Under the pieces are notes generated by a model. It searched no databases, was not told the DNA's origin, and was given only the letters and a program-made list of their open reading frames with translations. A stretch of 213 nt of DNA from Escherichia coli (GTDB taxonomy: Bacteria; Pseudomonadota; Gammaproteobacteria; Enterobacterales; Enterobacteriaceae). The stretch is taken from assembly GCF_003334405.1 (NCBI RefSeq), contig NZ_QOWM01000078.1, one strand, 5' to 3'. Positions 1-213 of this stretch are shown here, piece after piece (positions within the stretch are counted from its first letter, which is position 1; the number at the start of each line of letters is the position of its first letter). A program made the position numbers and the translations under genes.

Positions 1-6
1 AGAATA

Positions 7-83
7 TGGTGCATCCGGGAGGATTCGAACCTCCGACCGCTCGGTTCGTAGCCGAGTACTCTATCCAGCTGAGCTACGGATGC
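7..83 (-). tRNA. tRNA-Arg (anticodon ACG), intact, 77 nt, CCA encoded; enterobacterial argQ/argZ/argY/argV type
   Basis: Reverse complement of 7-83 reads GCATCCGTAGCTCAGCTGGATAGAGTACTCGGCTACGAACCGAGCGGTCGGAGGTTCGAATCCTCCCGGATGCACCA. It folds as a canonical cloverleaf: acceptor GCATCCG/CGGATGC, D-stem GCTC/GAGT, anticodon stem CTCGG/CCGAG with loop CTACGAA (anticodon ACG = plus 47-49 cgt), T-stem GGAGG/CCTCC with loop TTCGAAT, discriminator A, CCA at plus 7-9. I recognise it as the E. coli-type tRNA-Arg(ACG) from memory; which paralog cannot be decided from the window. Confidence 0.93.
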
Positions 84-146
84 ATCGGGAAAACTTATTC
101 TACTGCTGATATTGATACCGCTACTAAAGCCATATCAATTAAGAGA
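84..146 (-). other. 63-bp AT-rich spacer between the 5' end of the intact tRNA and the upstream tRNA 3' fragment; probable tRNA-operon spacer or leader
   Basis: About one third G+C by hand count. No structural RNA fold or long open frame. It sits exactly between the tRNA 5' end (83) and the CCA-encoding end of the fragment (147), as a spacer between tandem tRNA genes would. Confidence 0.55.
111..139. repeat. 7-bp inverted repeat ATTGATA (111-117) / TATCAAT (133-139) with 15-nt spacing inside the spacer
   Basis: Reverse complement of 133-139 (tatcaat) equals 111-117 (attgata). There is also an adjacent TGATA-T-TGATA direct duplication at 107-117. Short arms in AT-rich DNA, so chance occurrence is plausible. 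Confidence 0.3.
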
Positions 147-165
147 TGGTGCATCCGGGAGGATT
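147..165 (-). repeat. Truncated 3'-terminal 19 nt of tRNA-Arg(ACG), a direct repeat of 7-25; candidate att core of an integration junction, or a tRNA gene remnant
   Basis: Plus 147-165 (tggtgcatccgggaggatt) is identical to plus 7-25; identity is 20 nt if the matching base just past the CCA (6 vs 146) is included. On the minus strand it encodes AATCCTCCCGGATGCACCA. Identity ends at 165/166 (a at 166 vs c at 26), inside the T-loop. Upstream on the minus strand (166 onward) there is no 5' T-stem, anticodon arm or D-arm, so this is not a second functional tRNA. Confidence 0.8.
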
Positions 166-192
166 ACTCGCCTTGCGGCTCGCCCTTCGGGC

Positions 193-208
193 CGTTGCTA
201 AAGCAACG
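193..208. repeat. Perfect 6-bp inverted repeat with 4-nt loop (cgttgc-taaa-gcaacg); potential hairpin
   Basis: 193-198 cgttgc pairs with 203-208 gcaacg around loop taaa (199-202). It is not followed by a T-tract on the plus strand or an A-tract on the minus strand, so it is not a canonical intrinsic terminator. Confidence 0.4.
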
Positions 209-213
209 TTATC

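Follow-up and report, generated by a model that had tools for sequence, protein, structure and literature searches.

A GC-rich, hairpin-dense stretch between argZ and argQ of Escherichia coli is probably the 3' half of a tRNA-linked repeat related to RtT RNA

The locus and its features

The window, by which we mean the whole 213-nt stretch of DNA analysed here, covers the argZ-argQ end of the E. coli serV-argVYZQ operon, which according to the annotated context is located on the minus strand between csrA and yqaB. It contains the following features.

1-6, minus strand: start (TATTCT) of raQ, the next tRNA-linked repeat, directly 3' of the argQ CCA and running off the window; the TATTCT body is shared after argV, argZ and argQ.
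7-83, minus strand: argQ, a tRNA-Arg(ACG) gene and the last tRNA of serV-argV-argY-argZ-argQ (ARAGORN; Rfam tRNA, 67.1 bits; RefSeq and K-12 annotation).
84-145, minus strand: plain inter-tRNA spacer of 62 nt, homologous to the spacer right after argY (alignment).
146-165, minus strand: repeat tail, an exact 20-nt copy of the tRNA-Arg 3' end (AATCCTCCCGGATGCACCA plus T; direct repeat, 100% identity).
147-149, minus strand: the CCA within the repeat tail.
157-164, minus strand: ATCCTCCC, the 3' strand of the predicted closing helix, within the repeat tail.
166-169, minus strand: junction GAGT, within GA(R)TAATCC, leading from hairpin C to the tRNA-derived tail (invariant alignment columns; in the genome-scan alignment this is partly by construction, as the search pattern included these bases).
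170-179, minus strand: hairpin C, GCC-GCAA-GGC (anchored stems, RNAalifold, covariance-model alignment).
182-192, minus strand: hairpin B, G-CCC-GAA-GGG-C, the most conserved core of the family (CCCGAAGGG, invariant in arg and tyr copies).
193-208, minus strand: hairpin A, CGTTGC-TTTA-GCAACG (anchored stems, covariance-model alignment).
211-213, minus strand: GAT, the last three nucleotides of the predicted closing-helix 5' strand (GGGATGAT, one mismatch), cut by the window edge (full-element folds, junction sequences, fixed-register pairing test).

A similarity search with flanking sequence, as proposed in the earlier sequence-only reading, identified the stretch as the argZ-argQ spacer of the core E. 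coli chromosome. The window was matched in all 5426 complete E. coli genomes, with at least 80% of its length covered in 4179 of these. That reading had also described an abrupt change in composition at position 166, three closely packed stem-loops and a complete break with the tRNA sequence, and all of these descriptions were borne out. The G+C content is 0.75 in 166-193 (21 of 28 nucleotides), compared to 0.33-0.43 in 30-nt windows of the spacer at 84-145. The stem-loops gcc-ttgc-ggc (170-179), gccc-ttc-gggc (182-192) and cgttgc-taaa-gcaacg (193-208) are present, and identity to tRNA-Arg ends at 165/166 in the alignment, where the base before AATCC is T in the element and G in the tRNA.

The same reading had considered that the stretch might be the 3' end of a GC-rich protein-coding gene. 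Although mechanically predicted ORFs on the plus strand cross the region, they are the only ones that do so and they span whole tRNA genes in antisense orientation. On the tRNA-sense strand, no ORF reaches 20 amino acids, and two annotated tRNA genes flank the region, which forms the 198-nt spacer between them. We therefore give a coding origin practically no chance.

To place the window in the operon, the three spacers between its tRNA-Arg genes can be compared: those between argV and argY and between argZ and argQ are both 198 nt long, while that between argY and argZ measures 62 nt. Each long spacer consists, in order, of a body of ~115 nt that starts with TATTCT after the CCA, a 20-nt copy of the tRNA 3' end, and the 62-nt spacer of the argY type. 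The site after argY thus resembles an "empty" site, with the 62-nt spacer directly following the tRNA and no repeat in between. The element after argZ is ~135 nt long and begins one base past the argZ CCA. Window positions 146-213 are its 3' half, and it extends ~68 nt past position 213, outside the window. Its components are, from 5' to 3', two hairpins, a GGGAGGAT-like 5' strand, hairpins A, B and C, the GAGT junction, and the 19-20 nt copy of the tRNA-Arg 3' end. Within the window, this copy forms a perfect 20-nt direct repeat (6-25 and 146-165) that comprises the tRNA-Arg 3' end including the CCA plus one base. The two copies are spaced 140 nt apart, the length of one unit of tRNA plus spacer. 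The body alone was found in 5358 of the 5426 genomes, and no annotation was found under it in the genome records listed.

A third copy (raQ) follows argQ (L001, 2371-2506, minus strand). Our own covariance model R1, described below, scores it at 61.2 bits (L001, 2374-2452). In this copy, hairpin C is degenerate (ACGTCAGT), and the junction and the 5' strand are GAGTCATCC and GGAAGGAT, respectively. In E. coli strain G1/2 (L002, 2507-2953), the operon has two tRNA-Arg genes and one long spacer rather than four genes, which fits the loss of units through recombination between the repeats. The 62-nt spacer holds a hairpin of its own (inverted repeat 111-122 / 128-139). In addition, spacer positions 118-130 (CCGCTACTAAAGC) are 85% identical to 192-204 in hairpin A (CCGTTGCTAAAGC), a likeness that could be due to chance or be a trace of common origin. 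The CUGAUGAG-stem-CGAC segment in the 5' half of canonical copies was considered as a hammerhead-like motif and dropped, as the expected GAAA reads GAC.

A tRNA-linked repeat related to RtT

Tandem tRNA operons of E. coli are known to carry tRNA-linked repeats (TLRs). These were first seen in 1978, and 22 of them were catalogued at ten K-12 loci by Rudd (1999) (PMC8144298). [quoted passage not shown] 2021, PMC8144298). TLRs are described there as having no known function, and an early claim that rtT modulates recovery from amino-acid starvation is described as later retracted. Its supplement includes a strain table for a strain lacking all 22 TLRs, which lists Δ(argY/Z/Q, raQ/Z/V) at 2815672-2816445 in older K-12 coordinates (PMC8144298 supplement). 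We found these coordinates to correspond to the K-12 arg operon.

We propose that window positions 146-213 are the 3' half of raZ, a TLR of the arg operon that has diverged from its RtT relatives in the tyrT operon and that may be a precursor-processed RNA; we put the probability of this reading at about 80%. The name raZ for the copy after argZ is one that we infer from the naming pattern. Like the K-12 TLRs described before (Egan & Landy 1978; Rudd 1999; PMC8144298), raZ adjoins the 3' end of a tRNA gene within a tRNA operon and its last 19-20 nt equal the upstream tRNA 3' end, as the exact 20-nt repeat consists of 19 nt of tRNA (AATCC...CCA) and one further base. There is no difference from the K-12 TLRs, and raZ is the catalogued element itself, one of three arg copies that are named raV, raZ and raQ. 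The element was therefore already known, and what is new here is the comparative evidence for its fold and its distribution beyond Enterobacterales.

The Rfam model for RtT (RF00391) matches positions 147-213 on the minus strand with 46.4 bits (E-value of 2.5e-8) in 5'-truncated mode, where the gathering score is 45. Full-length arg copies score only 31.0 and 29.2 bits with this model, below the gathering score, whereas the four tyrT/tyrV copies reach 133-138 bits. This low score is explained by the arg copies sharing only their 3' domain with the tyr copies, since the 5' halves differ. Because they score below the Rfam threshold, the arg copies are unannotated in RefSeq. Similarly, the orthologues of the arg copies in Pantoea and Silvania gave no Rfam RtT call at the gathering threshold. 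With model R1, a covariance model of the three hairpins, the full arg copies score 75-76.5 bits and the window fragment 67.2 bits, with the reservation that the arg copies are in the seed of this model. The R1 core was found at the K-12 TLR loci that we fetched, namely tyr (four copies), proK, arg (three), the lysT operon (five), lysV and serX (three), and weakly at rrnB (20.9 bits). Most of these loci, with the exception of the arg copies, are called by Rfam at threshold.

A lone Rfam CRISPR-DR4 match (50.1 bits, gathering score 35) was observed downstream of serW (L126, 354-381, plus strand; K-12 NC_000913.3, 925753-925780). It lies near the serW TLR remnant and far from the known K-12 CRISPR arrays.

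With RtT (rtT/rttR of the tyrT-tyrV operon; Bösl & Kersten 1991), raZ has a 3' domain in common that consists of hairpin A, CCCGAAGGG, hairpin C, GAGTAATCC and the 3' end of the host tRNA, and both are positioned after a tRNA gene and tend to occur in multiple copies per operon. The 5' half of raZ is distinct and shorter, resulting in an element of 135 nt versus ~178 nt. The 5' strand of the closing helix directly precedes hairpin A in raZ, while it is found ~45 nt upstream in RtT, and raZ lacks a tpr-like ORF. The RrA, RrB and RrF elements at the ends of rrnA, rrnB and rrnD belong to the same class, as they repeat the 3' end of an upstream stable RNA, are transcribed in a precursor and are released by processing (PMC8144298). 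Their tails copy 5S rRNA, whereas the tail of raZ copies a tRNA. They are also positioned between two terminators and bind Hfq and CsrA in vitro, whereas the TLRs of tRNA operons are predicted not to bind CsrA (PMC8144298).

Folding and covariation of the three hairpins

The minimum-energy fold of 166-213 consists of exactly hairpins A, B and C. Taken by itself, this segment is only modestly unusual in its folding (z = -2.08; 4 of 200 shuffles were as stable), so the evidence beyond chance comes from comparison. The full elements have z-scores of -4.27 (the window copy) and -5.59 (the argV-argY copy), and none of 200 shuffles was as stable.

For this comparison, we scanned one genome per species with a pattern in which hairpin B and the 3' junction were fixed but hairpins A and C as well as the tail could vary. 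This identified at least 120 loci, and the taxa among the matches listed include Enterobacterales, Salinisphaera, Thioalkalivibrio, Chromatiaceae, Cellvibrionales, Alteromonas and Mariprofundus. As the variable length of hairpin A makes it unsuited to alignment with MAFFT and RNAalifold, we used anchor-based tests and a covariance model instead. Without any alignment, the 81 distinct sequences between the hairpin C anchors form end-anchored stems with a mean of 3.9 bp, against 1.5 bp in shuffled sequences (maximum of 1.84 in 200 shuffles). For hairpin A, the mean anchored stem in 113 distinct segments, which include 68 distinct stems, is 5.6 bp against 2.8 bp when shuffled (maximum 3.1). When given a plain MAFFT alignment, RNAalifold finds both hairpin B and hairpin C, with double-sided changes preserving three hairpin C pairs in 11-14 of 39 sequences.

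We also aligned 146 distinct copies to the model, an alignment that is thus fitted to a model with the arg copies in its seed. Here, 91.0% of the cells are paired, compared to 70.9% in shuffles, where none of 500 reached this value, and to 25-45% in slid registers. Double-change cells number 367, against 116 in shuffles, and the covariation score reaches 0.423, compared with 0.015-0.034 for slid registers. Hairpin A (helix 1) is 89.5% paired and has double changes at all six pairs; for hairpin C (helix 3), these values are 89% and four of four pairs. Hairpin B is a special case, as its three inner pairs were fixed by the search pattern and are neutral on pairing. Its closing pair varies between GC, GU, AU and AC, and CCCGAAGGG is invariant in the arg and tyr copies aligned without any pattern.

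The above comparison of homologous loci, a check that the sequence-only reading had suggested, settles one of its tentative readings in favour of a structured RNA: the stretch is the 3' domain of an RtT-type TLR, and covariation supports all three hairpins. It also argues that the fold of the element is under selection and that the stretch is not a neutral spacer, as far as can be judged from sequence. In the model-fitted alignment, which favours G.U, the ratio of G.U to A.C on the sense strand is 94:57. This wobble ratio is too weak to assign the strand, and the assignment is instead based on the position of the element, its CCA tail and the annotation of rttR, which in K-12 is on the tRNA strand at tyrV.

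In the Rfam consensus structure of RtT, the region of hairpin C has no pairing, and the CGAA/GGCG bases of hairpin B are paired to the 5' half. Our comparison favours local hairpins B and C over this consensus, and the Rfam structure looks improvable. Our result suggests correcting the RtT consensus structure and broadening the family.

Together with the CGAG that follows each of them, hairpins C and B make up a tandem direct repeat with units of 12 nt (167-178 and 179-190; CTCGCCTTGCGG / CTCGCCCTTCGG) that are 83% identical. These two hairpins may have originated by local duplication.

Linkage to tRNA genes of many types

Most tRNA-linked copies among the matches listed have a tRNA gene on the same strand that ends ~110-135 nt upstream of the core, and a 19-nt tail identical to the 3' end of this tRNA. 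The host tRNAs among these matches are Tyr, Lys (two anticodons), Arg (four), Ser (four), Gln (two), Glu, Pro (two) and Asp. Overall, tail and upstream tRNA 3' end are the same in at least 45 tRNA-linked copies of many tRNA types, and the body is found beside at least 16 tRNA species. Since many of these copies on various tRNAs are called by Rfam RtT at threshold, the spread across tRNA types was already implicit in Rfam.

The linkage bears on whether the element could be a decayed tRNA-Arg pseudogene that arose by tandem duplication, with a 3' end kept identical by gene conversion and hairpins that are meaningless remnants. The element does lie within a tandem tRNA array with a repeat spacing of exactly one unit, and GCACTAG-GGAGG before the closing helix resembles the 5' strands of the tRNA-Arg acceptor stem and T-stem (GCATCCG and GGAGG). 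Against this, the same body with the same hairpin order and invariant motifs is found beside Tyr, Lys, Pro, Ser, Gln, Glu, Asp and other Arg tRNAs. One body accompanying many tRNAs did not originate independently from each host tRNA, and for this reason we reject the pseudogene explanation as very improbable. Moreover, the hairpins contain compensatory changes, and neither ARAGORN nor the Rfam tRNA model detected a cloverleaf in 146-213 or in the full spacer, the only call being that at 7-83.

In Pantoea dispersa (L083, 2382-3307), four tandem copies of the Arg type alternate with four tRNA-Arg(ACG) genes. A repeat follows every tRNA in this array, whereas argY of E. coli has none.

A closing helix matched to the host tRNA

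In the predicted fold of the full element, GGGAGGAU, located immediately 5' of hairpin A, is paired to AUCCUCCC in the tail, with GCA-UGC outside of this helix and ACCA remaining single-stranded. The 5' strand of this closing helix is thereby predicted to pair with the T-stem and the first acceptor base of the tRNA copy. In this way, the helix may mimic the stack of acceptor stem and T-stem in the host tRNA, and hairpins A, B and C would take the place of the T-loop.

The 5' strand varies with the host tail, reading GGGGAAGGAT for Tyr, TGCCCGGCAGGAT for Arg-CCG, GGTAGGAT for Gln and AGAGGAT for Pro. Among the matches listed, we found 12 sequence versions of a closing helix with 6 bp or more, which vary according to the host tRNA. 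When pairing was assessed in a fixed register, 5' strands formed 6.9 bp with their own tails versus 4.4 bp with swapped tails, and in a free register these values were 7.5 and 5.9 bp (Wilcoxon p = 4e-5). In Pantoea, where tRNA-Arg carries A7-T66, the element reads AGGAGGAT/ATCCTCCT, which compared to E. coli is a compensatory change. In the window copy, the closing helix contains one mismatch (GGGATGAT).

The question of a mobile origin

The sequence-only reading had also raised the possibility that the stretch is the terminal sequence of an inserted element. In the sense meant there, this was not supported by the genomic context. The stretch is ordinary core chromosome sequence beside an uninterrupted tRNA-Arg gene, an outcome that the earlier reading had itself named as refuting it. 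The surroundings lack an integrase, 5358 of 5426 genomes contain the body, and matches in phage and plasmid records were mislabelled. A recent insertion was rejected on the grounds of core-genome presence, the lack of an interrupted tRNA or a nearby recombinase, and absence from genuine phages and plasmids. Carriage as phage or plasmid cargo was rejected as well, as the matches were mislabelled chromosomal records.

The element could also be the relic of a small mobile element that inserted at a tRNA 3' end, with the duplicated 3' end as an att-like or target duplication and the GC-rich stretch as a structured end. The 115-nt body and its tail lie between a tRNA 3' end and the normal spacer, for which argY provides the "empty" site, and the duplication begins in the T-loop (AATCC). 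The T-loop is the crossover point of many tyrosine integrases at tRNA genes. Attachment sites of integrative elements in tRNA genes likewise consist of a direct repeat of the tRNA 3' end from the T-loop that flanks a non-tRNA segment, but the 115 nt enclosed here lack an integrase, are located at a core-genome locus and contain a conserved structured RNA domain. Genes between the repeats and variable presence, as expected for an integrative element, were not found: the repeats enclose 115 nt, present in nearly all of the genomes. The body adjoining at least 16 tRNA species with host-matched tails and the related core in true Sedimenticola MITEs (see below) are also consistent with a mobile past, as are Erwinia strains that differ by RtT gain and by replacement of RtT with a tRNA (PMC7542023).

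Several observations nevertheless make such a relic unlikely. The neighbouring genes are yqaB and csrA, with no integrase or transposase nearby, and the element is part of the core genome and absent from genuine phages and plasmids. The element in the window lacks terminal inverted repeats, and in E. coli the copies occur in tRNA and rRNA operons only, which differs from MITEs. A duplication of 19-20 bp is atypical of transposases. The covariation of the 5' strand with the host tail implies long residence and selection on structure. Finally, tandem arrays and changes in copy number are explained by unequal recombination between repeats, a process that has been reported in Erwinia (PMC7542023).

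In Sedimenticola hydrogenitrophicus SN1189 (L092-L114), we observed at least 24 dispersed copies of a 199-325 bp repeat with an RtT-like core. This repeat has terminal inverted repeats (ATGGCACTTACTTAAG / CTTAAGTAAGTGCCAT), target-site duplications of ~10 bp and length steps of 42 bp, and is a MITE by these properties. Its ends may be akin to ERIC repeats. Similar dispersed copies without a tRNA tail were found at other loci (L044-L049, L010-L012, L034-L036, L080 and L082). Considering the 20-nt direct repeats by an empty site, the moves among tRNA types and the MITE relatives in Sedimenticola, an ancient mobile origin of the element is still conceivable.

A tentative extension of these observations is that the three-hairpin core is an ancient and widespread RNA module with a specific partner or activity. 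It would have been re-attached repeatedly to different tRNA 3' ends, with its 5' strand adapted to the host tail, and would be MITE-borne in some lineages. We consider this conceivable, at odds of roughly one to three. If true, TLRs would be a functional or semi-autonomous class of elements rather than processing debris, and the 45-year-old question of TLR function would become testable via the invariant single-stranded motifs and the host-matched helix.

Proposed processing and possible function

By analogy with rtT and RrB, raZ would be transcribed as part of the tRNA precursor, and most likely it is co-transcribed with the tRNAs and excised by the tRNA 3'-processing machinery. The 5' end of raZ would be generated by the 3' maturation of argZ. 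Its 3' end would be formed by the same machinery acting on the tRNA-like tail, with an RNase E cut just past the CCA followed by exonuclease trimming, and a compact RNA of ~135 nt would be released. For RrB, the 3' end maps 3 nt beyond the repeated sequence, and the repeated end has been proposed as an RNase E recognition site (PMC8144298). RtT RNAs have been seen on northern blots in Actinobacillus (PMC4986893).

A promoter-like site was found upstream of serV. No sense-strand terminator-like sites were found within the operon, with counts no higher than in shuffles, and a promoter or terminator role of the hairpins was discarded on this basis.

Could the released RNA have a function? It might be a trans-acting regulator or a protein sponge, like RrA, RrB and RrF that bind Hfq and CsrA, with the hairpins and single-stranded junctions providing a binding surface. 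This would add to the explanation of raZ as a processed TLR rather than exclude it. The structure and single-stranded motifs (GA.AAC, CCCGAAGGG and GAGTAAUCC) are strongly conserved across orders, RrB provides a precedent (PMC8144298), and RtT RNAs are detectable and stress-responsive in Klebsiella and E. coli datasets. Conversely, the 19 TLRs of tRNA operons scored below 0.01 as CsrA binders (PMC8144298), no partner or target is known, and the retracted claim mentioned above was the sole functional claim for rtT (PMC8144298). The strain without all 22 TLRs has been built and is viable, with no phenotype reported in the main text (PMC8144298); by this evidence, TLRs are dispensable in the laboratory. 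We therefore regard a regulatory or sponge function as possible, though doubtful.

For the window itself, these results provide a clean annotation, in that the apparent edge of an inserted element belongs to a long-known class of repeats whose arg copies are missed by current pipelines. TLRs have been without an established function since 1978, and the covariation, the host-matched helix, the spread over Gammaproteobacteria and Mariprofundus and the MITE relatives provide experimental handles.

Many non-enteric copies open with a terminator-like GC hairpin and a T-run right after the tRNA (L021, L028, L054, L059, L068, L071, L078, L079, L115 and others). Their core thus lies behind a terminator-like hairpin, likewise to the TLRs of rRNA operons that are positioned between two terminators (PMC8144298), and these copies may be transcribed through read-through only.
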